Below are positions 16,412-64,000 of a stretch of 64,000 nucleotides of DNA, in pieces. The notes under the pieces were generated by a model. That model was given only the letters and a program-made list of their open reading frames with translations, was not told where the DNA came from and made no database searches. The stretch is taken from NCBI GenBank assembly GCA_016840085.1, contig JAEOTA010000081.1, positions 96,001 through 160,000 of the forward strand, read 5' to 3'. Position numbers and translations under genes: made by a program. The first letter of the stretch is position 1, and every line of letters starts with the position of its first letter. This DNA comes from Promethearchaeota archaeon. Its GTDB lineage: Archaea > Asgardarchaeota > Lokiarchaeia > Sigyniarchaeales > SOKP01.

Positions 16412-16454
16412 TCCAATTTTTTTAAGATGTAGTAATTAACATATTATTTCTAAT

Positions 16455-39551: not shown

Positions 39552-40070
39552 TTATTGATTGATAAAAAAAAAATCTTTTTTATTTAATCTATATACTAAA
39601 ACATCTTCCTCTTCTTTATATAATTTAAATCCAACCTTTTTTTTTATATGATGCGCACCAATATTTTCTTTATAAGCTCCAGAAGTAATTATTTTTAAAT
39701 TTAGATTATTAAATACGTAATTAATGAAGAGTTTATAGGTCTCTGTACCATAACCCTTACCCCAATATTCTTTTTCTCCAATTAGTAGGCCAATACTACC
39801 ACTTTTCTTATTAAAATCAATAGAGCTTAATCTGACGTTTCCGATATGTGTATCATTTTCTTTGAGAAAGATGCCTAAAAAAAGACAATTTGGATCATTA
39901 TTTTGAGTAGTTATGTAATTTTCTAATTCTTTTATTGATGTTTTCTTCGTTTCTAAAAATATATTTATTTCAGGATTATTTATCCAAGATCTATATTTTT
40001 CAGTAGCATCTTGTTCTGTTAATGTCCTCAAATAAATCCTATCTCCTTCAAGTTTTTTATTAATTATCAT
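39552..40070 (-). CDS. GNAT (RimJ/RimL-type) N-acetyltransferase
   Basis: HIGNVRL, GLLIGEKEYWGKGYGTE and N...KKVGF. Confidence 0.9.
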   Translation of the reverse strand: MIINKKLEGDRIYLRTLTEQDATEKYRSWINNPEINIFLETKKTSIKELENYITTQNNDPNCLFLGIFLKENDTHIGNVRLSSIDFNKKSGSIGLLIGEKEYWGKGYGTETYKLFINYVFNNLNLKIITSGAYKENIGAHHIKKKVGFKLYKEEEDVLVYRLNKKDFFFINQ

Positions 40071-40130
40071 TCCAATTTAGAAAATTTTAAGAAATAAATT
40101 AATGTATCTATTTTTCTTAAATAACTAATA

Positions 40131-41054
40131 ATGAAAATTTCAAAACTTACTTTGGGAACTGCTCAATTAGGATTGAACTATGGAATTTCTAATATAAATG
40201 GAAAACCAGATTTTAATTATTCTCTTAATTTGTTAAAATATGCTTGGAAGAATGGAATTAATACTTTTGATACAGCTCCAACATATGGAAATTCCGAAAA
40301 AATAATTGGAGATTTTATAGTTTCAAATTTCAAATCTATTCCAAAAAATTTAACTATAATTACAAAATTATCAGCTCTTCAAATAAATAATAAAATGAAT
40401 TTTGATGATTTCTTAACTAATATTAAGAATACTATAATCCAAACATTAAGAAATTTAAAAATTAAAAAAATTCCAATTTACTTGATACATCATGCTCCAG
40501 ATTTGTATTTGAAAAATGGTATTATTATTAAATGTTTAAGTCAATTAAAGAATGAGGGATTAATCGATCGTATAGGGATTTCGATCTATAATCAAGAAGA
40601 AATAATTGAAGCATTTAAATATAAGGAACTTGATGTAATTCAAATCCCAATAAATATTTTTGACCATCGATTAATTCATAATAAAATATTGAAAAAACTT
40701 AAAGAAAAAAATTATTTAATATTTGCAAGGAGCATCTTTTTACAAGGCCTATTCTTTATTGATTTAGAATGCTTGCCAAAGAATCTTGAAATAGCAAAAA
40801 ATTATTTACTGAAGTTAAGAAATATATGTAAAGATTACAAAATCGAATTAGACAAATTGGCATTATTATTTGTAAGAGAATTGCCAGAAATTGATAGTAT
40901 TGTAATTGGTGTTGAAAGATTAGAACAACTTAAAAGAAATTTAATTTTAATTGAAGAAAAACCTTTACGTCATAATATTTTAAATAGAATTTTTTTAGAA
41001 TTTTCAGATGTTCCTGAATTAATAATTAATCCTTCTCTATGGAAAACTATCTAG
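40131..41054 (+). CDS. Aldo/keto reductase
   Basis: LGTAQLGLNYG, FDTAPTYGNSE, IGISIY and ARSIFLQG. Confidence 0.92.
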   Translation: MKISKLTLGTAQLGLNYGISNINGKPDFNYSLNLLKYAWKNGINTFDTAPTYGNSEKIIGDFIVSNFKSIPKNLTIITKLSALQINNKMNFDDFLTNIKNTIIQTLRNLKIKKIPIYLIHHAPDLYLKNGIIIKCLSQLKNEGLIDRIGISIYNQEEIIEAFKYKELDVIQIPINIFDHRLIHNKILKKLKEKNYLIFARSIFLQGLFFIDLECLPKNLEIAKNYLLKLRNICKDYKIELDKLALLFVRELPEIDSIVIGVERLEQLKRNLILIEEKPLRHNILNRIFLEFSDVPELIINPSLWKTI

Positions 41055-41128
41055 ATTATTTGAAAAAATAAAATATATTAAACCACAATAATTTTAGCGT
41101 AATATATTGTTTAAAAAGGTATTATATA

Positions 41129-42439
41129 ATGAACTGTCAAAAAGGAAATTCACTTTGGAAGAAGGCAAAACAATTGATCCCTGGGGGTTCACAATTATTA
41201 AGCAAGCGTTCTGAGATGTTTTTACCTGATCTTTGGCCCTCTTATTATACAAAAGCGAAAGGGATCGAAATCTGGGATTTAGATGGCAATAAATTTATTG
41301 ATTTTGCATCTATGGGTGTCGGCTCTTGTATACTTGGATATGCAGATGAAGAAGTTAATGAAGCAGTGAAAAATTCAATTAATAATGGTTCTATGACAAC
41401 TCTGAATTGTCCAGAGGAAGTTGAATTGGCAGAATTATTACTTGAAATACATCCCTGGGCTGGTGCTGTTCGTTATGCTCGTACCGGAGGAGAAAGCATG
41501 GCCATTGCGATTAGAATCGCTCGAGCATATAAAAAAAAAGAAAAAATTGCATTCTGTGGATATCATGGATGGCATGATTGGTATTTATCAAGTAATTTGG
41601 CAGATAATGCAAATCTTGACGGTCATCTTCTACCAGGGCTGGATCCTAATGGTGTCCCTAGAGGATTGATAAATACGGCAATTCCGTTCGAATATAATGA
41701 TATTGAGAAATTAGAATACATAACAAAAAAACATGACATTGGAATTATAGTTCTAGAGCCCATAAGACATCAAGAACCATCGAATAATTTTCTTAAACGA
41801 GTTAGAGAAATTGCTGATGATATTAATGCTGTTTTAATCTTTGATGAGATAACATCTGGCTGGAGACTAACTCTTGGAGGAGCTCATTTAAAATATAATG
41901 TTAATCCTGACATAATGGTAACTGCAAAAGCGATTAGTAATGGATTTCCTATGGGTGCTGTGATAGGAAAAAGTGAGATTATGGATTCAGCACAGATGAG
42001 TTTTATAAGTAGTACGTATTGGACTGAAAGAATTGGACCAACAGCAGCAATAGCAACTATAAATAAAATCAAAAAGGAAAAGGTTCCAGATAATTTAGAC
42101 AGAATTGGTAAAATTATTGGAAATGGTTGGACAAGATTAGCAGAAGAACATGAATTAGAGATTGAAATTCTGCATCCCAATGCTCTTATTTCTTTTTCAT
42201 TTGAGCTTGAAAATGCTCAAGAATGTAAAACATTATTTACACAAGAAATGCTTGATAAAGGATATCTTGCTTCAAATAGTGTTTATGTTAGTTTTAGCCA
42301 TAAAAAAGAATACTTGAATGATTACTTAAATGAAGTTGATGATGTTTTTGGCAAAATTAAATTAGCAGTAAAAAAAAATAGCGTAAAAAAGATGTTAAAG
42401 GGACCAATAGCTCATAATGGTTTTCAAAGATTAACCTAA
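41129..42439 (+). CDS. Class III PLP aminotransferase (glutamate-1-semialdehyde aminomutase-like)
   Basis: IPGGSQLLSK, TGGE, GYHGWHDW, FDEITSGWR and AKAISNG (PLP lysine). Confidence 0.92.
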   Translation: MNCQKGNSLWKKAKQLIPGGSQLLSKRSEMFLPDLWPSYYTKAKGIEIWDLDGNKFIDFASMGVGSCILGYADEEVNEAVKNSINNGSMTTLNCPEEVELAELLLEIHPWAGAVRYARTGGESMAIAIRIARAYKKKEKIAFCGYHGWHDWYLSSNLADNANLDGHLLPGLDPNGVPRGLINTAIPFEYNDIEKLEYITKKHDIGIIVLEPIRHQEPSNNFLKRVREIADDINAVLIFDEITSGWRLTLGGAHLKYNVNPDIMVTAKAISNGFPMGAVIGKSEIMDSAQMSFISSTYWTERIGPTAAIATINKIKKEKVPDNLDRIGKIIGNGWTRLAEEHELEIEILHPNALISFSFELENAQECKTLFTQEMLDKGYLASNSVYVSFSHKKEYLNDYLNEVDDVFGKIKLAVKKNSVKKMLKGPIAHNGFQRLT

Positions 42440-42444
42440 TCCTT

Positions 42445-43206
42445 TCATTTTATAATTCTATCCTTTTTAAGAGATCTTAAATATCCTTCATTTCGAATAT
42501 ATTTTTTATTAATTTCAATTAATTCGGGTCTTTCTTCTAATAACTTTAAAACATCATTCATCAAAAAAATCTTTTTTTTAGGATAAAGATATTTATAAAT
42601 TTCTCTTACAAATTGGAGATCTTCTTTCTCGTCAACAGTCCATCTCAGATGTGAAAGATTTTCAATATAAGATAAATTTTTTAACTTAAATTCTCCTGTA
42701 TCAGTAATGTAATTTGTAACATGTTCTCTCTGTGAAGTTAATTTTGCTTCTTTCCATGATTTTTCAAGGGCATAAAAAGAAAATCCTTCAACATCAAGAC
42801 CATCAGGATAAGTTGGTGGTCTAGTATTTGATGCATAATCACAATCTCCTTCTAAATATAAATCTACGACTTGATCAAATATTTTAGGATCAATTAAAGG
42901 ACAATCTGCAGTTATTCTTATTATAATGTCAACGCTATAAAGTTTTGCTGTCTGGTAATAACGGTCTAAAACATCATCACTACTTCCAGCAAAACTTTTT
43001 ATATTATATTGTTCAGCCAATTCTAATATTTTTTTATCTTGATTTAAATTTGTTGTTGCTATAATGATATCAGGAGAATATTTCGAATAATTCAATCGAT
43101 TGATATGATGCCATATCATTGGTTTTCTTTCGATGTCTGCCAATACTTTATTTGGTAATCTAGTAGAACCCATTCTTGCTTGAATTATAACGGCTAATTT
43201 AACCAT
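42445..43206 (-). CDS. spsF: SpsF-type cytidylyltransferase (CMP-nonulosonate synthetase-like)
   Basis: QARMGSTRLPNKVL, DVLDRY, RITADCPLIDP, PDGLDVE, REHVT and RWTVD. Confidence 0.88.
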   Translation of the reverse strand: MVKLAVIIQARMGSTRLPNKVLADIERKPMIWHHINRLNYSKYSPDIIIATTNLNQDKKILELAEQYNIKSFAGSSDDVLDRYYQTAKLYSVDIIIRITADCPLIDPKIFDQVVDLYLEGDCDYASNTRPPTYPDGLDVEGFSFYALEKSWKEAKLTSQREHVTNYITDTGEFKLKNLSYIENLSHLRWTVDEKEDLQFVREIYKYLYPKKKIFLMNDVLKLLEERPELIEINKKYIRNEGYLRSLKKDRIIK

Positions 43207-43282
43207 ATTTTCATAAACTCTTTAAAATTATTAAATATGTTATTTTATTTTTAATAGGAACTACTAATATTAAAAATTTAAA

Positions 43283-43750
43283 GTGAATTTTATGAATATT
43301 GATAGGCGTCTTATTGAAATAATTCCTGCTGAAAAAAATAATGAAAAACATAAAAAAAGAGTTTTAGAAATATTTAACCAAAATATTAATTTTTTCAATA
43401 TGACTAATAGGATTATTTCCTATGAAGAACATAGTAAATGGTGGGATTCTATTTTTAAAAAAGAAAAGATTTATCTAATTCTATTTAAAGGTGAAGTACA
43501 AGGCTATATTAGACTCTCAAAAATGAAAACAATTTCTAAAGAAAAACATGAAATGAGCATTGCTCTTGCTTCAAAAAACCAAAATTGTGGTATTGGAAGT
43601 ATAGCTTATCAAATGTTTGAAAAAGAAATGAAAAAGAAAGGAATAAAAGAAATTGTGGCAAAAACCATGGATGAGAATAAGAGAGCCCAAAATTTCTTTG
43701 AGAAGAATAATTTTCAACGCTCAATGGTAAGATATATTAAAAAAATTTGA
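43283..43750 (+). CDS. GNAT N-acyltransferase (PseH-like)
   Basis: ISYEEHSKWW, GYIRL, QNCGIGS and N.RAQNFFEK. Confidence 0.8.
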   Translation: MNFMNIDRRLIEIIPAEKNNEKHKKRVLEIFNQNINFFNMTNRIISYEEHSKWWDSIFKKEKIYLILFKGEVQGYIRLSKMKTISKEKHEMSIALASKNQNCGIGSIAYQMFEKEMKKKGIKEIVAKTMDENKRAQNFFEKNNFQRSMVRYIKKI

Positions 43751-43754
43751 AATC

Positions 43755-44819
43755 TTATTTCCTCTTAAAAGCATCTAATATAACTTGAGCAACACGATAT
43801 GCTCCCTTACCATCAAATAATGTTTGTCCTATTTGACTAATCTTTTTTCTTATATCAAGATTTTTTATTAAAGAATTTAGTTTATTTTTAATCATCTCAT
43901 CTGATACATTATTATGCCATCCTAAGTTAATTGTGCATTCTAATTCATTCATTTTTTTTGCCAAATTTTCCTGGTTCTCCGCAACTATAAAACTTATAGA
44001 AGGGGTTCCAGTAATTGCTAACTCGTATAATGTTCCTCCAGAAGTAGATAATGTAATATCACTTTTCATCATTAATTCACACATATTTGAGATATTATAA
44101 AAAAGTTCAATGTTATCAAATCTTTCTGCATAATTTTCTATTTCTTTTTCATTTCTGAACATGCAACCTATAATAACATTATATTTAAGATTAGATGAAT
44201 AACTATTAGTTTTTAGGATTCTTAATAATCTCAATGTTAAATTATGATTATCACTTCCTCCTGTTGTAATTAAAACCTCCTTTACATTTAAATTCACTAC
44301 TCTTTTTGCCAGATTTAAAAATTCAGCTCGAAATAAAATATATTTTGAACCTAACAAGAGAATAGTTGATTCATTTACATTAGAATAATAACTCTTTTTA
44401 GAAAAGATATTTCCATTAATTATGATATCCACAGGAACTCCATTCATACAAAAATCATCTATTAATACTAAGATTTTTAATTTATTTTTTAGAAATGTTA
44501 AATATTCCAATGAAGCTTGATAATGATCAACAATTAGACAATCAAGTTGAAGTTGTTGAATTATGTTTCCAATGAAATCCTTTTCATTTATCAAGTTCAG
44601 ATTTTTATTTCCAATGGATTTCTTTGCATTTGAAGGGATTTTTATTACAATATAGTTTTTATTGGTAATTATGTCATGTTCTTCATTTGAAATAAAGAAA
44701 ACTTTATAACCTCTATATTTGAATTCATCTGCCAAAGCCAAACATCGCATAATATGTCCTAAACCAATATCAGGGCTTCCATCAACTCTAAACCCTATAT
44801 TATATTTATATTCTACCAT
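43755..44819 (-). CDS. pseG: UDP-2,4-diacetamido-2,4,6-trideoxy-hexose hydrolase (PseG/SpsG family)
   Basis: RVDGSPDIGLGHIMRCLALA, IVDHY, IDD, TTGGSD and GGTLYEL...AENQ. Confidence 0.88.
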   Translation of the reverse strand: MVEYKYNIGFRVDGSPDIGLGHIMRCLALADEFKYRGYKVFFISNEEHDIITNKNYIVIKIPSNAKKSIGNKNLNLINEKDFIGNIIQQLQLDCLIVDHYQASLEYLTFLKNKLKILVLIDDFCMNGVPVDIIINGNIFSKKSYYSNVNESTILLLGSKYILFRAEFLNLAKRVVNLNVKEVLITTGGSDNHNLTLRLLRILKTNSYSSNLKYNVIIGCMFRNEKEIENYAERFDNIELFYNISNMCELMMKSDITLSTSGGTLYELAITGTPSISFIVAENQENLAKKMNELECTINLGWHNNVSDEMIKNKLNSLIKNLDIRKKISQIGQTLFDGKGAYRVAQVILDAFKRK

Positions 44820-44833
44820 ATAAATTACATTAT

Positions 44834-45517
44834 TTATCGAATTACTCTTACAGTTTTAAAAGGTTCAACATACTCCAAGCCAACTGATATACCCCAATAA
44901 TTTGAATTTATTTTTATTCCTTTTAGAGAGCGAGGATGAGGAAATTCTCGAATCTCGGATTTGTATGCTTTAAGCGCTTTTAATTTTAAATTTATTGTTT
45001 CTTTTATATCGAAAAAAACATCAGGAGAGAATGAAAAGGGATAATTCCATTCTGTAGAAGATGATACATAAAAAGAATAAATTTCTTTACAGGTTTCATT
45101 GATAAGGGGTCTAGTTGCCACTAATACCGCATTGTAAGTTAATTGATGATCAATATTTAGATCGGCCTTATAATGAGTAAATATGATGGTAGGATCGATC
45201 TTATTTTTTACTTGCTCAATTTTTTTGACTATCTTTAATAATGATACTGAATCAAAACTATTATCCGGAAGATCGTTAAAAATTATTTCCTTAATTCCAA
45301 GAATTTCATTTGCTTTTATTGCTTGCTCTTTTAATTCTTTTATCTCTTCTTTAAACGTATCTTGCTTACTCGAATCACTTCTTGAAGTTACTCCTTCTCC
45401 TAATATTAATGTTGTGGCTTGATATCCCTCTTTTATTAATTTCGCTACTGTGGCACCACAACCTAATACTTCATCATCTGGATGAGCAGCAACGATTAAA
45501 ATTTTTTTCATATTCAA
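44834..45517 (-). CDS. PIG-L/LmbE family N-deacetylase
   Basis: AAHPDDEVLG, DLNIDH and PHPRS; AGGAG upstream. Confidence 0.92.
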   Translation of the reverse strand: MNMKKILIVAAHPDDEVLGCGATVAKLIKEGYQATTLILGEGVTSRSDSSKQDTFKEEIKELKEQAIKANEILGIKEIIFNDLPDNSFDSVSLLKIVKKIEQVKNKIDPTIIFTHYKADLNIDHQLTYNAVLVATRPLINETCKEIYSFYVSSSTEWNYPFSFSPDVFFDIKETINLKLKALKAYKSEIREFPHPRSLKGIKINSNYWGISVGLEYVEPFKTVRVIR

Positions 45518-45580
45518 TTTTTTACTCCTATTATTCTAAATTATTTTAATATCTCGTTTCTATTTATTATCTCTTTCACT

Positions 45581-46222
45581 CTATTGTGATAGTAATTTTA
45601 ATTTTTCATTGACAATATCTCTTAATTTCTGATGCATCCAAAAATATCTTTTTCCTTCTGATGGTTTTTGCTTAGTTACCTTCACAGTATTATTAATTAT
45701 TTGTTTTATAGCTTCAGCTAAAGCAATATAACGATTATTATAATAGTTCCTTCGAGTAATAGTTTCAACATTATCTCCAGGTTCTATTTTTAATTTTCTT
45801 GTTAATATTATATCACCTGTATCTGCATTTTCATCAACGAAATGGACAGAAACTCCAATATCACCATCTTCTAAAATAGCCCATCTTCTGACATCAAATC
45901 CTCTGTATTTAGGGAGAATGCCTGCATGAACGTTAATGATATATTTTGGAATTCTAATAATTTCTTTTTTTATTATCTTACTACACATTAGAAAAACAAG
46001 ATCGGATTTAATTTGCTTAAGATAATCAATTGTTTCTTGAGAATTTAATTCAGATACAAAAAAAACATTGAAATTATTTACTTGTGAATATTCCAACAAA
46101 AGGTAATATTTCTCTTTATCACCTTTTACAACTACATCATTGACTTTTATGTTTTGAGTTTGTAGATAAAAAATAGCATGAATAATTGCTGATTTTACAT
46201 CGGTTAGCATGGTAATATTCAT
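45581..46222 (-). CDS. Sugar N-formyltransferase family
   Basis: INVHAGILPKYRG and HFVDENADTGDI. Confidence 0.9.
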   Translation of the reverse strand: MNITMLTDVKSAIIHAIFYLQTQNIKVNDVVVKGDKEKYYLLLEYSQVNNFNVFFVSELNSQETIDYLKQIKSDLVFLMCSKIIKKEIIRIPKYIINVHAGILPKYRGFDVRRWAILEDGDIGVSVHFVDENADTGDIILTRKLKIEPGDNVETITRRNYYNNRYIALAEAIKQIINNTVKVTKQKPSEGKRYFWMHQKLRDIVNEKLKLLSQ

Positions 46223-46239
46223 TAGATCTCAATATTTTG

Positions 46240-46515
46240 TTATTTAATTACCATTTCTTTTATTTTATTTAGTATTTCTTTTTCTAAAAGATTAATTCTT
46301 TCAATCTCGGATATTTTTAGAATTTTATTTTGTTGTCTTAAAAAATCATTAATTTTTAAAGATGTATTAAAAAATCTTTTATCATTTAATGTTTTAGTAA
46401 ATTCCATAAATTTTAAAGAAGTAAGATATAATTCTTTAATTTCCTCAGAACTTAATTCTTTATTCCAAGGTTTTGATAACTCTATTCTTATCATAGATTC
46501 TTCTATATCACTCAT
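46240..46515 (-). CDS. Small hypothetical protein within the operon
   Basis: 91 aa; ATGA overlap with the upstream methyltransferase; 17 bp to the formyltransferase. Confidence 0.65.
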   Translation of the reverse strand: MSDIEESMIRIELSKPWNKELSSEEIKELYLTSLKFMEFTKTLNDKRFFNTSLKINDFLRQQNKILKISEIERINLLEKEILNKIKEMVIK

Positions 46516-47183
46516 TTCCTTGCCATCACAATATATTCTGCTAATCTCAGATGGCTTTTTTTCTCATCTAAGATACAATTAAGTTTATGTTCTAAAATAT
46601 CCTCAATCATAAAGTCTTTTAAAACATCTATAATCTCATCTTTACTGAAAAAATGTGCTATATCTGAATGAGAATATGAACCCTCTTTAAAATTTGTATA
46701 AGTATTTTTTTCAAATTCTTCTCCATAGATTAGATCGGGATGATTTAAATTTGGTAAAAAACCGATATAAATTCCCTCTTTTTTAAGAACTCTATAAACT
46801 TCATTAAAAATTAATTTAATATCTTTCCAGATATTGCAATAAATTGAAGCTCGATCTATTATACAATTAAAAAAATCATTTTCATAAGGTAAATTTTTAA
46901 AATTTCCTACAATGCATTGAGCATTTAAATTTTCCTGTTTTAATCTCTTCTTTGTTATTTCCACTCCTTTTGGAGCGCCATCAATGGCATATGTTTTAAA
47001 TCCTTCTTTTGCTAAAAAATATGTATTATTTCCCCCTCCACATCCTAAGTCTAAGATTTTTATTTGTTGTCTTTCTTTCACTGCAAATAAATTCATAACC
47101 AATGAAACTAAAATATCATATGGCCAATTATTATATCGGCCTTTCTGGTAGTTCCTTTCCCATGCTTCAATTTCTTTTTCCAT
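46512..47183 (-). CDS. Class I SAM methyltransferase
   Basis: ILDLGCGGG, LPYENDFF and RVLKKEG; GAGG upstream. Confidence 0.92.
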   Translation of the reverse strand: MEKEIEAWERNYQKGRYNNWPYDILVSLVMNLFAVKERQQIKILDLGCGGGNNTYFLAKEGFKTYAIDGAPKGVEITKKRLKQENLNAQCIVGNFKNLPYENDFFNCIIDRASIYCNIWKDIKLIFNEVYRVLKKEGIYIGFLPNLNHPDLIYGEEFEKNTYTNFKEGSYSHSDIAHFFSKDEIIDVLKDFMIEDILEHKLNCILDEKKSHLRLAEYIVMARK

Positions 47184-47197
47184 TAATATAAAACCTC

Positions 47198-48256
47198 TCA
47201 GGAATTAAAATATTTGTTCTTTTTTATAAATAATTCATTCCAATACCTAATCATTTTAGTTTCTTGAACTTGTAGATTTTTTTCAATGGGAAGCCCCATT
47301 GCTAATTCTACTGCCTTTGCTAAGATATTTATGCCTGCTGCAGCATTAATTACGATAGATGCTCCCACTCTTGCATTAATTTCATATATCATAGGTAGGT
47401 TTTTTTCAATATTATAAGCCACTTCAATATTTAAACAATAATCAAATTTGAATATATTTACAACTTTTTTTACTAAATCATATACTTTCTTGTCTTCTTT
47501 AACAAGTCCTACTTTAACAGGTCCCGCTTTAGGAATCAAACGGACATTTGGAACAATATAGTAAGAAAAACCATTCTTTGCTAACACATCAACATTAAAA
47601 TCTTCACCTTCTAAATATGCCATTAATAATATTGATGGAAATGAATCAGCTTTAGTTAAAATCTCATGAACCTTTTCTAGACATGTGGTTTGTCTGTCTC
47701 TATCTTTTAAAAGACCATATACTTCATCATAATTCGCATCTAAAACCCAAAATCCTCGAGCTCCTCGTGAAAAATTTGGTTTTAAAACTATCTTTTTTTC
47801 AGGATAACCCAAATCTCCAGCATATTTAACTAATTCGTCACAATCATTAGGGATTCGAAATTTAGGAACCTCAATACCTTTTCTTTTTAGATACTTAAGC
47901 ATTTCCCCTTTATTAAAAGCAATTTTACATATATTATAATCAGAACATAAAGGTGTTATCCCATTGGCTAAGAATTTTTCTTTTTCTTTGGCTAATGCTA
48001 GTGTTTCTTCATCTGATGTAGGAATTATAAAACTTACTTTTTCCTTAAGTGCAATCTCTAAAATTTTATCACTATAATCTAAGTCACTTCCTAATGGTAC
48101 TTTATAATAAGTATCAGCAAAATGAAATCCAACTGCATCTTCCGAAGCATCTACAGCAACAATATAAATATTATTAAAATAGCTTCTTAGAGAATTAATC
48201 ATCGAGGGAATTACAAGCCCTCCTGAACTGGTTAATATTAATCTAATCTGTTCCAT
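47198..48256 (-). CDS. ATP-grasp ligase (CarB-like/PylC-like)
   Basis: IIPTSDEE, NKG, LKPNFSRGARG and YEINARVG. Confidence 0.88.
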   Translation of the reverse strand: MEQIRLILTSSGGLVIPSMINSLRSYFNNIYIVAVDASEDAVGFHFADTYYKVPLGSDLDYSDKILEIALKEKVSFIIPTSDEETLALAKEKEKFLANGITPLCSDYNICKIAFNKGEMLKYLKRKGIEVPKFRIPNDCDELVKYAGDLGYPEKKIVLKPNFSRGARGFWVLDANYDEVYGLLKDRDRQTTCLEKVHEILTKADSFPSILLMAYLEGEDFNVDVLAKNGFSYYIVPNVRLIPKAGPVKVGLVKEDKKVYDLVKKVVNIFKFDYCLNIEVAYNIEKNLPMIYEINARVGASIVINAAAGINILAKAVELAMGLPIEKNLQVQETKMIRYWNELFIKKNKYFNS

Positions 48257-49280
48257 TTAGCATATCCCATCTGATAATATCTTTAGATTTAATATTGATA
48301 AGGGCTTTTTTTCGTGGAACCTTTTTTTCAAAATTTTCCAAGGTAGGTTTAATTCCTGACGCGGGTCTTGCTGTATCAAGCATATCCTGGGTTATTATAG
48401 TTCCTTTAGGAATATCTACTTTTGCCATTATACTTCGTCTTCCTTGAGAAATATTCTTTTTTTCTTCGGGATAAATTGTTTTGTTTTTACTCCCTAATGC
48501 CTTTTCAACGATTTTTATTCCATCAACCATCATCTTAAATTCTTCTGGTTGCATAGCAAAGGGATGATCTGGTCCTTCTAAATTCCTATTTATTGTTAAA
48601 TGCTTTTCCACTACACATGCCCCTAAAGCAACTGATGCTATTGCAGGAAAGATTGAAAGAGAATGACCTGAATAACCAATAGGATAAGAGAATACTTTTT
48701 TAAATGTTTTAATTACATTTAAATCTATAGTATCTATTTCACTAGGATACATCGTAGTACATTGGAGGATTAATATCTTTCTATTACCTTGCCCTTCAAT
48801 GACTCCAATGGCTTCTTTAATCTCCTCAATACTTGATCCCCCACTCGACAATAATATCAGTTTTCCTTTAGAGGCGATATATTTCAACTTAGGATGGTCA
48901 GTAATTTGAACTCCGCCCCATTTATATAGAGGGGTATTAAATTCCTCTAAAATATCACAATCTTCATAATCTGAAGGAGTTGAAAATAAAATAATTTTTC
49001 TTTTATTACTATATTCAATTAATTCTTCTAGCCAATCGAGTTTGAATTCATATTTCTTTAAATAATTAATATTCAACCATTCTTGTTTTTCATTATGCAT
49101 CGAAATAAATTTTTTAGCCTGCCAAGTTTGAATTTTAATAGCATCAGCACCTGCCCACTTTGCTTTATCAATTAAATTTTTTGCCATTTTAATCGAACCA
49201 TTGTGATTAGCACCCATTTCAGCAATGATAAATACTGGACAATTATCGCCAATTTCGATATTATGAACTTTAAACTTTAT
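48243..49280 (-). CDS. neuB: Nonulosonic acid synthase (NeuB/PseI/SpsE family) with a C-terminal SAF domain
   Basis: FIIAEMGANHNG, KIQT, LQCTTMYP, GYSGH, EKHLT, GPDH and RRS...RPASGI. The frame extends 21 codons upstream of the called ATG to an ATA at 49280 preceded by GGTGA. Confidence 0.9.
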   Translation of the reverse strand: MKFKVHNIEIGDNCPVFIIAEMGANHNGSIKMAKNLIDKAKWAGADAIKIQTWQAKKFISMHNEKQEWLNINYLKKYEFKLDWLEELIEYSNKRKIILFSTPSDYEDCDILEEFNTPLYKWGGVQITDHPKLKYIASKGKLILLSSGGSSIEEIKEAIGVIEGQGNRKILILQCTTMYPSEIDTIDLNVIKTFKKVFSYPIGYSGHSLSIFPAIASVALGACVVEKHLTINRNLEGPDHPFAMQPEEFKMMVDGIKIVEKALGSKNKTIYPEEKKNISQGRRSIMAKVDIPKGTIITQDMLDTARPASGIKPTLENFEKKVPRKKALINIKSKDIIRWDMLNGTD

Positions 49281-49341
49281 TTAAATCACCAATCCAATTA
49301 AGCAAATACAAAAATTACAACATTTGGTAATAGAAAATCTA

Positions 49342-50535
49342 CTATTTGCTATAGAAATTTATGATCTTTTCTAAAGCATTAATAACATCATATACATCTT
49401 TATCATTCATTTTAGAAAATAATGGAATGGTTAATAGTCTTGGATATAACCATTCAACATTGGGTAAAATACCTTTATTTAATCCAAATCTTTTCTGATA
49501 ATAAGAATGATAATGAACAGGAATATAATGTACATTAACTCCAATATTCTCTTCTCTTAAAGCTTTAAATATAAAATCTCTGTCACGTCTTAATTTTTCA
49601 AGTTCTAATTGAATTACGTATAAATGCCAAGAGTGTTTAATATTATTCTTTACATAAGGAAGCTTAACCTCTTCAATACTTTTTAACTCTCTCTCATAAA
49701 TTTTAACTATTTCACGTCTTCTTTTTTGGAAATCCTGTAATTTATTTAATTGATGAATTCCAAGAGAGGCGTGAAGTTCACTCATATTATATCTAAATCC
49801 TAAATATTTCATATCATAATAAAAATCTCCTGATTTTCCAAATCTTTTTATAGCATCCTTAGAAATCCCATGCGTTCTAAACATAAGGAGTTTTTCATAC
49901 AATTCTTCACTATTAGTTGTTACCATTCCTCCTTCAGCAGTAGTCATATTTTTTACAGGATGAAAACTAAATACTGTCAAATCACTAATATTTCCGATTT
50001 TCTTACCATTATATTCAGCATCAATTGCATGAGCAGCATCCTCAATAATATATAAATCGTTTTCTTGAGCAATTTCACAAATTTCATCCATATCACATGG
50101 TTGCCCTGCAAAATGAACTGGAATTATTGCTTTAGTCTTAGGGGTAATTTTTTTCTTAATCTCATTTGGATCAATATTGTAAGTATTCTTTTTAATATCA
50201 GCAAATATTGGTGTTCCTCCTCTATATACTACACAATTAGCTGATGCAACAAAAGTTAGTGGAGTAGTTATTACCTCATCTCCAGGTTTAATATCTATAC
50301 TTGAAGTAGACACATGCAGAGCTGCAGTTCCAGAATTTACAGCAATAGCGTACTTTGACCCTATAAACTTTTTAAAATGTTCTTCAAATAATCTCATTTT
50401 AGGGCCAGTAGTAATCCAATTAGATTTCAATGAATCAACAACTTCCTTTATTTCTTTATCATTTAACCATTGTATACCGTAAGGAAGAAAGTTATCTCTG
50501 ACAGGTTTTCCACCTTCAATTGCAGGTTTTTCCAT
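49342..50535 (-). CDS. pseC: UDP-4-keto-6-deoxy-HexNAc aminotransferase (PseC/SpsC, DegT family)
   Basis: LPYGIQW, NSGTAALH, EDAAHA, FSFHPVKNMTTAEGG and VNVHYIPVH. Confidence 0.88.
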   Translation of the reverse strand: MEKPAIEGGKPVRDNFLPYGIQWLNDKEIKEVVDSLKSNWITTGPKMRLFEEHFKKFIGSKYAIAVNSGTAALHVSTSSIDIKPGDEVITTPLTFVASANCVVYRGGTPIFADIKKNTYNIDPNEIKKKITPKTKAIIPVHFAGQPCDMDEICEIAQENDLYIIEDAAHAIDAEYNGKKIGNISDLTVFSFHPVKNMTTAEGGMVTTNSEELYEKLLMFRTHGISKDAIKRFGKSGDFYYDMKYLGFRYNMSELHASLGIHQLNKLQDFQKRRREIVKIYERELKSIEEVKLPYVKNNIKHSWHLYVIQLELEKLRRDRDFIFKALREENIGVNVHYIPVHYHSYYQKRFGLNKGILPNVEWLYPRLLTIPLFSKMNDKDVYDVINALEKIINFYSK

Positions 50536-51485
50536 TATTTACCCCTCTCAAATTTCATTATCCAATTTTCTAGTTTTTGTATTCCCTCTTTTAATGGTGT
50601 TTTTGGTTCCCAATTTAATAGATTTTTTGCTTTAGAGTTATCACATACTAATTTCATTATCTCACTTTGAGGATGGTGATGTTTAACGTGTTTTATAAGG
50701 TTCTCGTCATCTGCAATGAGCTTTGCTAATTCATTTATAGATATATCATTCCCCATCCCCGCGTTAATTACTTCTCCTATACAATTTTCATTTTCTGAAG
50801 CACCTACAATAAAATCAGCACAATCCTCAACATATAGAAAATCTCTAGTTTGGGTTCCATCTCCAAAAATCTTTAATTTTTCACCTTTATTTTTGAGTTT
50901 AACGAATATAGAAATAACTCCTCCTTCCATATTTGTTTTTTGAAACGGTCCATAAGTATTAAATGGTCTTAATACGACAATTGGCAAACCTAGGCCATAG
51001 TAATAAGAAAATGCTAATTCTTCAGCAGCAATTTTAGAACCTGCATAAGGGGATCTAGGTTTAATTCGATGTGTTTCAGATATAGCAACTTTTGTGTCTG
51101 CCATATCATAAACTAAACACGTACCAATTATAACAACTTTCGAATTTGTCTTACGTGCAGCTTCAAGAATGTGATATGTGCCGAGTACGTTAATTTCAAA
51201 AGCTCTATCAGGGTGTTCTATGCTTTCTTGTACATCTATTTGAGCTGCAAGGTGAATACAGGTTGAAATCTTAAATTTTCCAAATATATTTTCAATGATA
51301 GCTCTATTTCTGATATCATCAATAATTATATCTATTAGATTTTCATTTTCTTTAAACTCATCTAAATTTTCTATTCGACTATTGCTTAGGTTATCAATGA
51401 CAATTACTTTCTTCTTATCTTGCAATAATTTTTTAACTACCCATCTACCAATAAATCCTGCGCCACCTGTAACTAAAACAACCAC
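50535..51485 (-). CDS. NAD-dependent nucleotide-sugar epimerase/dehydratase (extended SDR)
   Basis: VTGGAGFIG, HLAA, YAGSK, RPFNTYGP and GDGTQTRDF; TAATG overlap with pseC. Confidence 0.93.
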   Translation of the reverse strand: MVVLVTGGAGFIGRWVVKKLLQDKKKVIVIDNLSNSRIENLDEFKENENLIDIIIDDIRNRAIIENIFGKFKISTCIHLAAQIDVQESIEHPDRAFEINVLGTYHILEAARKTNSKVVIIGTCLVYDMADTKVAISETHRIKPRSPYAGSKIAAEELAFSYYYGLGLPIVVLRPFNTYGPFQKTNMEGGVISIFVKLKNKGEKLKIFGDGTQTRDFLYVEDCADFIVGASENENCIGEVINAGMGNDISINELAKLIADDENLIKHVKHHHPQSEIMKLVCDNSKAKNLLNWEPKTPLKEGIQKLENWIMKFERGK

Positions 51486-51503
51486 TTTAAAAACTCTGAG
51501 ATT

Positions 51504-52532
51504 TTAAATAATTTTGTTTTTAATTAAGAAGTCTTTAATTTCTTTTTTAGTTAGAAAAGGACCATCCTTAGAATTAAAAGATTTAGAACTATCAAATTTA
51601 TTTATACTGGGATATAAAAGATTATTTATCTTGCCTGAAACCTCTGTTAATTGAGGTAAAATAATGTACATATTCTCTATTTCATATGTTCTCATTGATT
51701 CTTCAATTGAAAATAGTTCCTCATATAATTTCTCTCCTGCAAACATTCCAATTTCTTTTATTTGAATTTTTTCTTCTTTTTTATTGTATTTTTTTGCAAA
51801 ATTTTCAATTAGAACTTTAATAAGATCAATTATCTTGACAACATCCATTTTTAGAACAAAAACTTCTCCTCCCTGGGCAATTTCTAAAGTTTTTAAAATT
51901 AATTCAATAGCTCTATTAATACTCATAATATATCTTGTCATCTCAATATGAGTTAATGTTATAGGGATGTTATTTTTAATTTGATCTCTAATGAGAGGGA
52001 TTAAAGATCCTCTAGATCCTAACACATTCCCAAATCTTACTGAATAAAAAATAGTCTTAGCCTTTCCTTTATAAAAATTTGCTGCGGTGACTAATTTTTC
52101 TCCTAATAATTTGGTAACGCCCATAGTATTACTTGGTGAAGCTGCTTTATCTGTGCTAGTATAAACAAATTTTTCAATATTATAGTCTATACTTATTTCT
52201 ATTAAATTTTGAAGCCCTATAATATTTGTCTTAATAGCTTCAAATGGATTATATTCACATGCTACTACATGTTTTAAAGCAGCTAGATGAAACACAATAT
52301 CTACATCTTTAATAGCTCTATTTAATCTTTCTTTATCTCTTATATCCCCAATAAAAAATCTAAGTTTTTTTCTATAGTTCTTTAGTTTTTTAGATAAATA
52401 ATATTGTTTAGTATCATCCCGACTTAAAATTCTGATTACGTTAGGAGAATAATCTGATAATAATTTAAGAACTAGGTCTTCTCCGATAGAACCAGTACCT
52501 CCAGTAATTAAAATTGTTTTATTATCAAACAA
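51504..52532 (-). CDS. UDP-GlcNAc 4,6-dehydratase family (Polysacc_synt_2; PseB/CapD-like)
   Basis: TGGTGSIG, ALKHV..CEYNP, STDKA..P.NTMGVTK, VRFGNVLGSRGS and GEKLYEEL. Confidence 0.92.
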   Translation of the reverse strand: MFDNKTILITGGTGSIGEDLVLKLLSDYSPNVIRILSRDDTKQYYLSKKLKNYRKKLRFFIGDIRDKERLNRAIKDVDIVFHLAALKHVVACEYNPFEAIKTNIIGLQNLIEISIDYNIEKFVYTSTDKAASPSNTMGVTKLLGEKLVTAANFYKGKAKTIFYSVRFGNVLGSRGSLIPLIRDQIKNNIPITLTHIEMTRYIMSINRAIELILKTLEIAQGGEVFVLKMDVVKIIDLIKVLIENFAKKYNKKEEKIQIKEIGMFAGEKLYEELFSIEESMRTYEIENMYIILPQLTEVSGKINNLLYPSINKFDSSKSFNSKDGPFLTKKEIKDFLIKNKII

Positions 52533-52552: not shown

Positions 52553-53470
52553 TTAAATAATATTTAAAAACAAATCTTCTAAGGATAATTCCTGTTCTTT
52601 TATTTTCAAAATTTTATAATTTCTTAAAATCTGAATTAAATCTTTGTAATAATCTCTATTTTTAATACGAACAATAAAGCCATTATTAATCTCAATAACT
52701 TCTTTTATAAAATTGTTTTTATTTAATTCTGATTTTAATTGGTTCTTAATTTCACTGATTTCTATTACAATTTTAATCTCTTGTTGTATTAATTTTGAAA
52801 TATCTTCCTTTGTCCCTATTTTGAGAATCTTACCTTTATCAATAAAAGCAATTCTGTCACATAATTGTTCTACAAGACTCATATCATGACTTGTCAGAAA
52901 TGTTGTTTTCTTAGATTCCTTTATTTTTTTTACTATATAAAATTTTGATTTAACATCTAAACCTAAAGTTGGCTCATCTAAAAATAAAATTTTACGATCC
53001 AATAATAGAGTTCGACATAAAGCAAGCTTCATTTTCATGCCACTTGAGAAATTCTCAACATATTGATTCAACCATTTTTCAAGTTCAAATTCTTTTATAA
53101 TTTCATTTATTTTCTTTTGATAATTTGGAATATTATAAATTTTACAAAAAAATTTTAAGTTATCATAGGCAGTAATTCTATAGTATAACATCTTGTCCTC
53201 TAACATTAATGCCACTTTAGATTTTGCTTTTTTAGGTTTTTTAAGAATATTGTATCCATCAATAAGAGCGTATCCACTTGTAGGTTGTTTTATTGTAGTT
53301 AAAATTTGAATTAATGTTGTTTTCCCTGCACCATTCGGACCTAATAGTCCAAATATCTCTCCCTCTTTTATTGATAAATTAACATCATTTAACGCAACAA
53401 TTTCTCTTTTACGTTGCTTTAACTTATAGATTTTAGATAAATCGAAAGTCTCAATGATATTTTTGTCCAT
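52553..53470 (-). CDS. ABC transporter ATP-binding protein (ABC-2/DrrA-like)
   Basis: GPNGAGKTT, FSSGM, LDEPT and SHD. Confidence 0.95.
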   Translation of the reverse strand: MDKNIIETFDLSKIYKLKQRKREIVALNDVNLSIKEGEIFGLLGPNGAGKTTLIQILTTIKQPTSGYALIDGYNILKKPKKAKSKVALMLEDKMLYYRITAYDNLKFFCKIYNIPNYQKKINEIIKEFELEKWLNQYVENFSSGMKMKLALCRTLLLDRKILFLDEPTLGLDVKSKFYIVKKIKESKKTTFLTSHDMSLVEQLCDRIAFIDKGKILKIGTKEDISKLIQQEIKIVIEISEIKNQLKSELNKNNFIKEVIEINNGFIVRIKNRDYYKDLIQILRNYKILKIKEQELSLEDLFLNII

Positions 53471-58332: not shown

Positions 58333-58355
58333 AAGTTTCTTTAAGTTAATTGTTT

Positions 58356-63765: not shown

Positions 63766-64000
63766 GGAGCAGTTTTTATTTCAGTTTTAAATGATTTATC
63801 TTCAATAATTTCAACGTAAGAATTTTTTTCTAAATTGTATTTTTTATAATAAAATAATTTTTTTGCTTTTTCTATATTCATAATCAAAGTATCAATCATG
63901 ACATTTCCAACAAAAAAAATTTTAGAGGAATCAATCCCTTCTCTTTTTAAATTAATTTCAGCACTTTTTTCAGTTGTAAATAAAAAATCTGACAACTGAT
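63762..64000 (-). pseudogene. wecB: UDP-GlcNAc 2-epimerase, internal part (5' end outside the window), apparently truncated
   Basis: LSDFLFTTEKSAEINLKREGI...FVGNVMIDTL. The expected TLHR motif and C-terminal domain do not follow YV, and a stop comes 16 codons later. Confidence 0.8.

Follow-up and report, generated by a model that had tools for sequence, protein, structure and literature searches.

The CMP-pseudaminic acid pathway of Bacillus thuringiensis comprises seven enzymes: Pen, Pal, an aminotransferase, an acetyltransferase, a hydrolase, a synthase and a cytidylyltransferase (Li et al. 2015, as cited in PMC8987622, PMC7439481 and PMC5109656, which summarise the function of Pen and Pal and their relation to PseB). 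Structures of Pen (6BWC) and Pal (6BWL) are available. PseB/FlaA1 and Pen carry the signature [ST]DK..Yx3K, and PglF/WbpM carry TDK..Mx3K (PMC8987622). In Bacillus subtilis, the Sps enzymes (SpsM, C, D, G, E and F) operate without Pal and are reported to make legionaminic acid (Leg; PMC7439481).

Several tailored variants of these sugars are also described. In Acinetobacter baumannii prophages, EpaA, a CTP_transf_3-AKR fusion, acts with EpaB on finished pseudaminic acid (Pse) and converts it to 8-epi-Pse (PMC12053666), while an 8-amino Pse-like sugar is present in Tenacibaculum maritimum (PMC3210612). PseJ is responsible for 7-N-formyl Pse (6CI2), and, according to PMC13317340, Clostridium botulinum carries the N-methyl-aminoacyl nonulosonic acid (NulO) Leg5GluNMe7Ac.

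Overall organization of the locus

We describe here a bacterial-style locus of 18 genes for a sialic-acid-like sugar in a Loki-type Asgard archaeon. It is part of a large glycan island, dense in glycosyltransferases and methyltransferases, that extends from ~27 kb to 62 kb of the window (the whole 64,000-nucleotide stretch analysed). The genes named in an earlier note on this DNA are all intact ORFs, each backed by Pfam or NCBIfam, and its description of a heavily tailored pathway is borne out for a NulO of the 5,7-diamino type. The span given there, 39552-52532, does hold these genes, but the functional locus is wider: a candidate transferase stretches it to 37694, and a co-directional ABC transporter, a putative member of the system, possibly to 54296. 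The chemistry discussed below is inferred from gene identities, synteny and gene fusions.

The locus shares with the B. thuringiensis pathway a pair of adjacent entry SDRs, the second of which is a Pal orthologue. For the later steps, both have PseC-type, PseG-type, NeuB-family and SpsF-type enzymes as aminotransferase, hydrolase, synthase and cytidylyltransferase, respectively. The locus differs in its archaeal host, which has no flagellin, and in nine additional tailoring genes. With the B. subtilis Sps system it has in common a soluble MxxxK UDP-GlcNAc dehydratase, the Sps-type hydrolase, synthase and cytidylyltransferase families, and a non-flagellar surface target. The genome is 98.8% complete and yielded no flagellin gene, so the target of the sugar is not the flagellum.

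As judged from its gene table, the parts list of the Legionella pneumophila non-serogroup-1 O-antigen loci is similar overall, with GNAT, PseG, class III aminotransferase, cytidylyltransferase, AKR, DegT, CapD and NeuB, a "capsule polysaccharide biosynthesis protein" and a Wzm/Wzt ABC transporter (PMC3694923). In contrast, those loci serve a bacterial LPS and include HisF/HisH-type acetamidino genes, and the table lists no Pal, ATP-grasp, PIG-L or formyltransferase (PMC3694923).

Entry enzymes and stereochemistry

The first SDR is a Met-type, Pen/PseB-like UDP-GlcNAc dehydratase (51504..52532, reverse strand; PF02719, Polysacc_synt_2, 335 bits). It reaches 330.6 bits on the PseB model, under the cut-off of 407.75, and among solved structures it matches Pen best (6BWC, 298.8 bits), followed by FlaA1 (231.3), CapE (222.5) and PglF (168.8). 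TDK occupies residues 127-129 and MGVTK residues 137-141 (window 52124-52110), as had been read from the sequence before, and the motif background given in the note agrees with the review (PMC8987622). B. thuringiensis Pen has a catalytic Tyr where the Asgard enzyme has Met. This Met is found in all 120 of the 120 closest homologues, and likewise in dehydratases encoded next to Pal in Thermotogaceae, Chloroflexia and all Asgard relatives examined; the family occurs in clusters with Pal and in Pal-less, Leg-like clusters. The residue is thus a lineage trait rather than a sign of unusual stereochemistry. Since Met is universal in the subfamily, with or without Pal, its combination with Pse-type downstream enzymes does not support a "hybrid" pathway. 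In a tree of 14 dehydratases, Pal-linked enzymes are not separated from Pal-less ones, so orthology to Pen is drawn solely from the best-hit ranking.

The second SDR (50535..51485, reverse strand) is by sequence a clear orthologue of Pal, of the UDP-6-deoxy-GlcNAc-5,6-ene 4-oxidase/5,6-reductase/5-epimerase type. It matches B. thuringiensis Pal (6BWL) over residues 1-311 with 363.9 bits (E 7e-108), the runner-up reaching 160.8 bits, and the Pal family is compact in a set of 1.8 billion representatives. The protein would be the second enzyme of the known Pen/Pal route, which leads to the normal precursor of Pse. The hybrid reading therefore stands in part: the tailoring and a role of the extra SDR in setting stereochemistry hold up, but a Pal orthologue would steer C5 towards the normal Pse backbone and not away from it, and MxxxK loses its value as a mark of a non-Pse backbone.

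The C4 aminotransferase (49342..50535, reverse strand) is of the PseC type (TIGR03588, 451.7 bits, over the 423.5 cut-off). In Asgard relatives, the aminotransferases of Pal-linked clusters score 452-496 bits on the PseC model, whereas those of Pal-less clusters score 279-306 bits and are accompanied by synthases that pass the NeuB_NnaB cut-off. Judged by these scores, Pal goes together with true PseC-type aminotransferases in this group, and the Pal-less clusters have Leg/Neu-type synthases. Pal and an above-cut-off PseC also distinguish the locus from that of B. subtilis and point to the L-altro branch. The order Pen-Pal-PseC is identical in Bacillaceae loci, and Pen-Pal-PseC-SpsF-like is found in Bacillales (Halalkalibacter; partly Anaerobacillus and Tepidibacillus) and Chloroflexia.

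Hydrolase, synthase and acetyltransferase

The PseG-type UDP-sugar hydrolase (43755..44819, reverse strand) scores 215 bits on TIGR03590, over its cut-off of 153.55. Pen, Pal and PseC are 70-85% identical to the proteins of relatives, against at most 32% for PseG and at most 49% for the synthase.

The NeuB-family nonulosonate synthase (48243..49280, reverse strand; ORF 49217-48243; PF03102, 246.9 bits) is divergent, and no Asgard NeuB sampled is more than 43% identical to it. It scores 304.6 bits on NeuB_NnaB and 266.2 bits on PseI, under the cut-off in both cases, whereas the synthases of Bacillaceae loci (Anaerobacillus, Halalkalibacter) are true PseI with 514-520 bits. The frame has no canonical start ahead of the conserved PVFIIAE strand. 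The sole candidate is an ATA codon at 49280, from which the N-terminus aligns with its homologues, and this is the apparent start. What remains unusual about the locus is this synthase, which falls outside both the PseI and the NeuB model, and the aminotransferase/reductase module described below.

A GNAT acetyltransferase (43283..43750, forward strand; PF00583) is the probable PseH equivalent, as its homologues, 50-53% identical, adjoin PseC in two relatives (L091 and L093). Neither GNAT of the locus reaches the PseH cut-off of 93.1 (33.3 bits for this protein and 47.6 for the other).

Predicted N-acyl exchange block

The tailoring genes form two modules. The first is internal to the operon: its genes are flanked by those of the synthase and PseG, and they overlap or are separated by gaps of 14-63 nt. 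It contains a PylC-like ATP-grasp ligase (47198..48256; PF15632, PF21360), a SAM-dependent methyltransferase (46512..47183; PF13649, 66.9 bits), a 91-aa ORF (46240..46515), an N-formyltransferase (45581..46222; PF00551, 81.7 bits) and a PIG-L family N-deacetylase (44834..45517; PF02585, 90.1 bits), all on the reverse strand. The 91-aa ORF overlaps the methyltransferase stop (ATGA) and has neither a family match nor a homologue among the related loci examined.

The ATP-grasp protein, whose nearest Atlas clusters score 0.99, is predicted to be an amide-forming N-acyl ligase. The AHPDDE motif of PIG-L is intact, and the protein is 63% identical to a PIG-L in another locus (G004) that adjoins PseG and an ATP-grasp gene. 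A PIG-L neighbour is present in 5 of 11 loci with ATP-grasp homologues. This recurrence, here with a methyltransferase and a formyltransferase, suggests that the module probably exchanges N-acyl groups on the amino groups of the sugar; by analogy with such pathways, PIG-L would deacetylate and the ATP-grasp enzyme would then ligate. An amide-linked N-methylated amino acid, as reported for C. botulinum Leg5GluNMe7Ac, is the expected output of ATP-grasp and methyltransferase together.

As in PseJ-dependent formylation, the formyltransferase is encoded within a Pse cluster. Its Asn/His/Asp catalytic triad signature IINVHAGILPKYRG...DTGD is intact and its PDB matches include the sugar formyltransferases, PseJ (6CI2) among them, but the PseJ match is weak, with 44.8 bits, below that to FDH N-terminal domains. 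With the triad and the recurring PIG-L/ATP-grasp neighbours, the earlier proposal that formyl or aminoacyl groups replace N-acetyl is a reasonable prediction.

SpsF module

The second module is centered on an SpsF-type cytidylyltransferase (42445..43206, reverse strand; CTP_transf_3, PF02348, 92.5 bits; top PDB match 6OEW), the sole CTP_transf_3 gene in the genome. It is 45-48% identical to the gene that follows Pen-Pal-PseC in Bacillales loci (Halalkalibacter, Tepidibacillus). The other members are a class III, GSA-aminomutase-like aminotransferase (41129..42439, forward strand; PF00202, 153.9 bits), an aldo/keto reductase (AKR; 40131..41054, forward strand; PF00248, 119 bits) and a RimL-type GNAT (39552..40070, reverse strand; PF13302, 80 bits).

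Among the top 120 longer SpsF homologues, most are Aminotran_3 fusions, and others carry AKR, GNAT, GFO oxidoreductase or NeuB domains. In a CTP_transf_3-aminotransferase fusion, the C-terminal domain is 52% identical to the class III aminotransferase over the full length of the latter; in an AKR-GNAT-CTP_transf_3 fusion, the GNAT domain is 45% identical to the RimL-type GNAT; and fusions with the EpaA architecture (PMC12053666) are homologous to SpsF (50%) and to the AKR (38%). The fusion of these four activities elsewhere suggests that the module converts a hydroxyl to NHAc, or performs C8 redox chemistry, on the nonulosonic acid, and the tailored sugar may gain a third nitrogen. Unlike in EpaA, SpsF and AKR are here separate genes, and the cluster has no EpaB-type short-chain dehydrogenase; the additional class III aminotransferase and GNAT suggest amination rather than epimerisation. 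A class III aminotransferase is also present in the L. pneumophila O-antigen locus, where the sugar cited for non-1 serogroups has two amino groups only (PMC3694923).

Candidate glycosyltransferase and ABC transporter

A protein of 539 aa (37694..39313, forward strand) is a candidate CMP-nonulosonate glycosyltransferase, identified by its fold as KpsC-like GT-B. It has no Pfam match, and PF05159 is not detectable by sequence. Its AF2 model (pLDDT 91.6) best matches KpsC (6MGD, Z 14.6; 6MGB, Z 13.9) and WbbB (Z 10.7). The GT-B-like fold and the invariant His-Pro motif are thus shared with the beta-Kdo transferases KpsC and WbbB (GT107/GT99; 6MGD, 6MGB, 5FA0); H375, P376 and E378 are invariant across 45 homologues. 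All named matches to the family are from Lokiarchaeia, and its members share Lokiarchaeial contigs with the dehydratase. On the basis of the model, the protein is likely the transferase of the sugar.

At the other end, an ABC-2 type permease (53475..54296, reverse strand; PF01061, 36.7 bits) is the first gene of the co-directional run. It lies 4 nt upstream of a DrrA/Wzt-like ATPase gene (52553..53470, reverse strand; PF00005, 110 bits; TIGR01188, 240 bits, under cut-off), itself 20 nt upstream of the dehydratase. The transporter may act in glycan export.

Alternative explanations

The features counted against a Pse-series sugar are the missing catalytic Tyr of characterised Pen, the higher NeuB/Leg-type than PseI score of the synthase and its altered motifs (SDH to SGH, LLHC to LQC), the occurrence of the class III aminotransferase in Pse-like as well as Leg-like Asgard clusters and in the Legionella locus, a PseG that is undetectable in several relatives, and a tailoring block of which no counterpart was found in the 68 same-family genomes sampled. 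Some of these would fit a different backbone, where a C5-retaining, SpsM/PglF-like dehydratase and Sps-type PseG, NeuB and SpsF lead to a legionaminic-type or other stereoisomer and Pal does something besides net C5 inversion. B. subtilis SpsM is an MxxxK enzyme complemented by PglF or by Pen plus Pal, but not by PseB, and feeds a reported Leg pathway through SpsC/D/G/E/F (PMC7439481). The Asgard dehydratase family also serves Leg-like clusters, and the Legionella locus with the PseG/class III aminotransferase/cytidylyltransferase/AKR set belongs to serogroups cited for a 4-epi-legionaminic acid homopolymer (PMC3694923). We nevertheless consider a non-Pse backbone unlikely: Pal is strongly orthologous to an enzyme with a published L-altro 4-keto product, its Asgard partners pass the PseC cut-off where the aminotransferases of Pal-less clusters fail, PseG is over its own cut-off, and the NeuB cut-off, which the synthase of this locus fails, is exceeded by its counterparts in Leg-like Asgard clusters (434-461 bits).

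It is similarly improbable that the product is ordinary Pse5Ac7Ac, with the accessory genes acting on other sugars or the finished glycan, or supplying an acyl or amino donor. The surrounding island is full of glycosyltransferases and methyltransferases; the accessory families are generic, with scores far under every equivalog cut-off; for some PIG-L/ATP-grasp pairs, the short stretches retrieved (2-4 kb) yielded no NulO-pathway gene; and class III aminotransferase and AKR could in principle produce an amino or hydroxy acid. Against this stand the position of the tailoring block within the operon, the fusion of AKR, aminotransferase and GNAT to nonulosonate cytidylyltransferases in many organisms, and the far greater divergence of the synthase and PseG beside the block than of Pen, Pal and PseC, as expected if their substrates are altered. 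Less probable still is a decaying or silent pathway that makes no nonulosonic acid, the synthase having lost its start codon and conserved residues. Its first ATG comes after the conserved N-terminal strand, with just ATA following the in-frame TAA; an ATG start would cost the invariant A20 and E21; the two altered motifs are conserved in most or all aligned homologues; the HMM score is 305 bits against ~380 for relatives; and a truncated Epimerase_2 remnant with stops at the window edge attests gene decay in the island. However, a frame of 345 codons without stops in DNA of 24-28% GC points to selection, a ribosome-binding motif (GGTGA) lies 5 nt ahead of the ATA, the remaining 17 genes are all intact, and a single-base error in the metagenome-assembled genome (ATG read as ATA) is equally possible.

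Proposed pathway

On balance, we favor a locus that makes, activates and probably transfers a Pse-series NulO through a Pen/Pal entry and then re-decorates the sugar. The Met-type dehydratase would convert UDP-GlcNAc to a 5,6-ene or a retained 4-keto-6-deoxy sugar, from which Pal would form UDP-4-keto-6-deoxy-L-AltNAc by C5 inversion. PseC would then aminate C4, and the new amine could be acetylated by the GNAT or formylated by the formyltransferase. PIG-L would remove an N-acetyl group, and the PylC-like ligase would couple a carboxylate, probably an amino acid, to the amine thus exposed, leaving an N-acyl substituent that the methyltransferase may methylate. PseG would release the free hexose, the divergent synthase would condense it with PEP, and the SpsF-type enzyme would form the CMP-sugar. 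AKR, class III aminotransferase and RimL-type GNAT may convert a hydroxyl, most likely C8-OH, to acetamido, or perform C8 redox chemistry. The KpsC-like protein would finally transfer the CMP-sugar to a surface glycan of this archaeon, which the adjacent ABC transporter may export.

Gene content and layout of the locus

Twelve ORFs, spaced by −14 to 63 nt, form an unbroken minus-strand run from 54296 to 43755, and six further genes extend the locus to 37694. Pfam and NCBIfam searches recover every gene listed in the earlier note. The nonulosonic acid (NulO) core comprises a Polysacc_synt_2 dehydratase, a second extended short-chain dehydrogenase/reductase (SDR), PseC, a NeuB-family synthase, PseG, two GNATs, and an SpsF-type CTP_transf_3 enzyme. 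The accessory genes encode an ATP-grasp enzyme, a methyltransferase, a 91-aa ORF, a formyltransferase, a PIG-L deacetylase, a class III aminotransferase, and an aldo/keto reductase (AKR). The host genome (4.68 Mb, 89 contigs) has a single NeuB gene and a single CTP_transf_3 gene. The closest named homologues of the dehydratase and of a neighboring 539-aa protein all come from Promethearchaeota, Lokiarchaeia, or Odinarchaeota MAGs. Window GC is about 24%; it reaches 27–29% in the NulO genes (39552–52532) versus 23.5% on either side and 23% in the gene for the 539-aa protein, a difference that may reflect coding constraint or foreign origin.

No flagellin domain is found in the host genome, which is 98.8% complete. 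The locus is therefore not a flagellar glycosylation island, and flagellin glycosylation was ruled out as its role.

Past the ABC transporter and a GT4 gene lie two tandem proteins of about 735 aa (55863–58073 and 58350–60557, plus strand), which have no Pfam match and may be membrane glycan-processing proteins. At 63852–64000 and beyond (G000:C78:159852-160346 in the window's genome; locus L143 1411–2040, minus strand), we observe a truncated UDP-GlcNAc 2-epimerase (Epimerase_2) remnant spanning model positions 2–169 of 347 and split by a TAA into 63-aa and 141-aa ORFs. Such a remnant at the edge of a glycan island is a sign of past cassette replacement.

A Met-type dehydratase paired with Pal

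The dehydratase gene (51504–52532, minus strand) is followed 18 nt downstream by the gene of the second SDR (50535–51485, minus strand). Compared with all PDB sequences, this SDR matches Bacillus thuringiensis Pal (6BWL) over residues 1–311 with 363.9 bits, the next match being a GalE with 160.8 bits. The Pal family is small: only about a dozen clusters exceed 275 bits among 1.8 billion cluster representatives, and below that score generic epimerases are found. The best-scoring representative, P0124, is 762 aa long, which indicates that Pal also occurs fused to another domain. Among solved relatives of the dehydratase, Pen (6BWC, 298.8 bits) ranks ahead of FlaA1 (231.3), CapE (222.5), and PglF (168.8). 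Three papers describe B. thuringiensis Pen and Pal as standing in for PseB, with UDP-4-keto-6-deoxy-L-AltNAc reached via a 5,6-ene (PMC8987622, PMC7439481, PMC5109656).

The dehydratase sequence reads ...STDKAASPSNTMGVTK..., and the MGVTK motif that the earlier note had reported was confirmed by direct reading, with Met137 at the position of the SDR catalytic Tyr. The contrast drawn there between YxxxK (PseB/FlaA1) and MxxxK (PglF/WbpM) enzymes also matches a 2022 review, which assigns [ST]DK..Yx3K to PseB/FlaA1 and Pen and TDK..Mx3K to PglF/WbpM (PMC8987622). The [ST]DK...Yx3K active site of Pen is absent from the window dehydratase, where TDK is kept and Tyr is replaced. With Met for Tyr and 330.6 bits on the canonical inverting PseB model (TIGR03589, cut-off 407.75), the enzyme also falls outside that class. 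A Pen motif 'SSN...Y', read from the 6BWC alignment, was dropped because the crystallized protein is a D128S/K129N variant and wild-type Pen has DK (PMC8987622).

[ST]DK...MGxxK is present in all 120 closest dehydratase homologues (68–100% identity). Next to Pal, the dehydratase carries Tyr, as in Pen, in two Bacillaceae, and Met in Thermotogaceae, two Chloroflexia, and every Asgard relative examined. The PseB model scores Tyr-type and Met-type enzymes similarly (309–330 bits, all below cut-off). Asgard clusters without Pal also contain Met-type dehydratases. A maximum-likelihood tree of 14 dehydratases is star-like, with deep branches unsplit and Pal-linked and Pal-less contexts intermixed; it backs neither a Pen clade nor its absence. 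The Met-type variant of the Pen/Pal route is widespread and, to our knowledge, uncharacterized.

From these data we infer that the Met-type enzyme acts as a shared entry dehydratase, and that Pal would be the switch committing the intermediate to the L-altro, or pseudaminic acid (Pse), branch. Some caution is warranted, since the Met-type SpsM of B. subtilis is reported to retain C5 and to feed a legionaminic acid (Leg) pathway of Sps-type PseG, NeuB, and SpsF homologues (PMC7439481).

The genes and motif described in the earlier note are thus sound observations, and its proposal that the extra SDR helps to set stereochemistry holds as well. The direction differs: as the SDR is a Pal orthologue, stereochemistry would be steered to the ordinary Pse precursor. 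The proposed 'hybrid' pathway is largely superseded by the Pen/Pal route, itself known and present here as a Met-type variant.

Aminotransferase, hydrolase, synthase, and candidate CMP-synthetase

PseC (49342–50535, minus strand) scores 451.7 bits on TIGR03588 (cut-off 423.5) and PseG (43755–44819, minus strand) 215 bits on TIGR03590 (cut-off 153.55). The synthase (48243–49280, minus strand) belongs to the Pfam NeuB family and scores below the cut-offs of both specific models, with 266.2 bits on PseI (TIGR03586, cut-off 340.25), which places it outside the PseI type, and 304.6 bits on NeuB_NnaB (cut-off 399.65). The same combination is found in the Pal-linked Asgard clusters, where the aminotransferases pass the PseC model (452–496 bits) and the synthases lie below both cut-offs. 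In Pal-less Asgard clusters, the aminotransferases fail the PseC model (279–306 bits) and the synthases pass NeuB_NnaB (434–461 bits). Both features thus follow the presence of Pal.

The start of the synthase gene is unusual. At 49217–49285 (minus strand) there is no ATG, GTG, or TTG 5' of the conserved N-terminal strand PVFIIAE; the first ATG comes only after this strand, which includes two invariant residues. An ATA immediately following a TAA opens the frame; it aligns with the Met start of homologues and is preceded, at a distance of 5 nt, by GGTGA. Possible causes are a non-canonical start, an assembly error, or a lesion. In addition, the synthase deviates from the conserved SDH and LLHC motifs and scores below the synthases of relatives; its divergence could represent adaptation to altered substrates, or decay.

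Both GNATs score far below the PseH cut-off, and homologues of GNAT2 (43283–43750, plus strand) adjoin PseC in two relatives. The SpsF-type enzyme (42445–43206, minus strand) reaches just 25.6 bits on the PseF model and is 45–48% identical to the gene that follows Pen–Pal–PseC in Bacillales loci (Halalkalibacter, Tepidibacillus). It is the sole CTP_transf_3 gene of the genome and the only candidate CMP-synthetase.

A putative N-acyl exchange module

The ATP-grasp enzyme (47198–48256, minus strand) falls in a PylC-like amide-forming group. Homologues occur in none of 68 genomes of the same family, and a metagenome scan yields only relatives of 30–33% identity. A PIG-L gene lies beside the ATP-grasp homologue in 5 of the 11 loci holding one, and one Asgard genome of another family (G004) has the order PseG, ATP-grasp, gap, PIG-L, with identities of 63% and 41%. 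The closest ATP-grasp homologue (42% identity), between PseG and PIG-L in that genome (G004:C139:1491-2540, locus L099), contains one in-frame TGA and one in-frame TAA and could be a pseudogene or a case of recoding or of a mini-intron.

The PIG-L deacetylase (44834–45517, minus strand) has an intact AHPDDE metal motif. In the formyltransferase (45581–46222, minus strand; PF00551, 81.7 bits), the Asn/His/Asp triad is intact, as read directly in IINVHAG...DTGD. Its PDB matches include sugar N-formyltransferases and PseJ (44.8 bits), with 10-formyl-THF dehydrogenase domains matching better.

These enzymes could act together in an N-acyl exchange, in which PIG-L would deacetylate one amine and the ATP-grasp enzyme would re-acylate it with an ATP-activated carboxylate. 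The methyltransferase could then methylate the added substituent, and formylation would compete with acetylation at the PseC-derived amine. Precedents are Pse5Ac7Fm-type sugars for the formyl variant and Leg5GluNMe7Ac of C. botulinum for an N-methyl-aminoacyl NulO (PMC13317340). The unusual N-substitution that the earlier note predicted remains plausible.

The SpsF, aminotransferase, AKR, and GNAT module

Among the best 120 of the longer SpsF relatives, the majority run to about 685 aa and carry a fused class III aminotransferase; the others are fused to an AKR, an AKR and a GNAT, a GFO oxidoreductase and an aminotransferase, or NeuB. The window aminotransferase (41129–42439, plus strand), AKR (40131–41054, plus strand), and RimL-type GNAT (39552–40070, minus strand) are 52%, 38%, and 45% identical to the corresponding fused domains, suggesting that these three genes and SpsF constitute one functional unit. 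A 555-aa fusion with the architecture of EpaA has one half homologous to SpsF and the other to the AKR, which in the window are encoded by separate genes 1.4 kb apart. EpaA, a CTP_transf_3–AKR fusion, converts Pse5Ac7Ac to its 8-epimer together with the SDR EpaB (PMC12053666). The coupling of CTP_transf_3 to an AKR is shared by the window; however, Pfam detects no EpaB-type (adh_short_C2) dehydrogenase among the cluster ORFs, and the class III aminotransferase and GNAT stand in its place. This replacement suggests a sequence of oxidation, transamination, and acetylation (OH to NHAc).

A specific version of this chemistry is that the module would turn the C8 hydroxyl of a 5,7-diamino NulO into an acetamido group, yielding a 5,7,8-triamino-pentadeoxy NulO as in Tenacibaculum maritimum, here also carrying formyl and/or N-methyl-aminoacyl groups through the deacetylase/ATP-grasp exchange. 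We regard this proposal as rather unlikely. An 8-amino, manno-configured NulO is known from T. maritimum (PMC3210612); no genes assigned to it were found, its O-antigen paper giving generic enzyme classes, and the Leptospira NulO paper makes no mention of such an aminotransferase or reductase. Against simple amination, the class III aminotransferase occurs in Pse-like and Leg-like Asgard clusters alike. It is also present in an L. pneumophila O-antigen locus, and the sugar cited for non-1 serogroups has two amino groups (PMC3694923). Alternatively, the class III enzyme and the AKR could produce GlcN-6-P-type precursors or a donor of hydroxy-acyl or amino-acyl groups, a role we disfavor since both are fused to the cytidylyltransferase elsewhere. 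What most calls for explanation in the locus is the aminotransferase/reductase module, which is not peculiar to this genome. If C8 amination is correct, it would account for hundreds of cytidylyltransferase–aminotransferase fusions in bacteria and archaea.

A candidate transferase and possible export

The 539-aa protein (37694–39313, plus strand) has no Pfam match, including to PF05159, even at E = 5. About 60 Lokiarchaeial homologues share contigs with members of the dehydratase family. An AlphaFold model built from a 45-sequence alignment has a pLDDT of 91.6, and the top matches in an exhaustive structural search are KpsC beta-Kdo transferases (Z 14.6 and 13.9, rmsd about 4.5 Å); WbbB follows with Z 10.7, and generic GT-B folds with Z of about 10 and rmsd of about 10 Å. 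Residues H375, P376, and E378 are invariant in the 45 sequences; a His-Pro motif is typical of KpsC-type Kdo transferases. In the atlas neighbors of the protein, 38–41% of members carry PF05159. The protein is a good candidate for a CMP-nonulosonate transferase, and the locus offers a candidate archaeal family of such enzymes without a Pfam model.

The glycan may be exported by the adjacent ABC-2 transporter (ATPase, 52553–53470, and permease, 53475–54296, minus strand). The transferase and co-transcribed transporter parallel the parts list of the Legionella NulO O-antigen locus (PMC3694923).

Variation among Asgard relatives

The locus is accessory, Pal being found in 9 of 301 genomes sampled across the phylum and in 3 of 22 from the same genus. 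Relatives share Pen–Pal–PseC (70–85% identity), GNAT2, a synthase, the class III aminotransferase (59–77%), SpsF, and the AKR. Compared with 68 Asgard genomes that carry NeuB, the window synthase reaches no more than 43% identity to a full-length match (49% to one partial copy); PseG shows about 32% identity to its relatives.

In a close relative (G147, locus L091, G147:C10:503000-522999; genes 6652–7416, 13155–14675, and 16168–17862), the window's tailoring block is absent and PseG was not detected. Instead, this locus has a xylose-isomerase-like TIM barrel gene by the synthase, an AMP-binding (acyl-adenylate) enzyme, a second SpsF paralogue, and a Pfam-recognizable Capsule_synth protein. The conserved entry module as against the divergent synthase-to-PseG stretch, the absence of the ATP-grasp gene from 68 genomes, and the different cassette in one relative suggest that the island swaps tailoring cassettes around a stable entry. 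In the same relative, the class III aminotransferase gene occurs twice; some 40 kb from the intact gene, the other copy (G147:C10:551336-552642) is broken by several stops (TGA, TAG, TAA).

Implications

A full-text literature search returned no paper pairing Asgard archaea with pseudaminic acid; the only one found on Asgard archaea and nonulosonic acids concerns HexNAc-type N-glycans in P. syntrophicum. Beyond this genome, the locus raises the questions of whether a Met-type dehydratase plus Pal equals PseB, what the role of the widely fused cytidylyltransferase–aminotransferase(–reductase–GNAT) module is, and whether pairing a deacetylase with an ATP-grasp enzyme is a general means of exchanging N-acyl groups on amino sugars. 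Nonulosonic acids are major determinants of cell surfaces. Of the 301 genomes sampled from the phylum, 68 carry NeuB-family genes (25 of the 90 high-quality ones), suggesting that sialic-acid-like sugars probably form a common and variable component of the Asgard cell surface.
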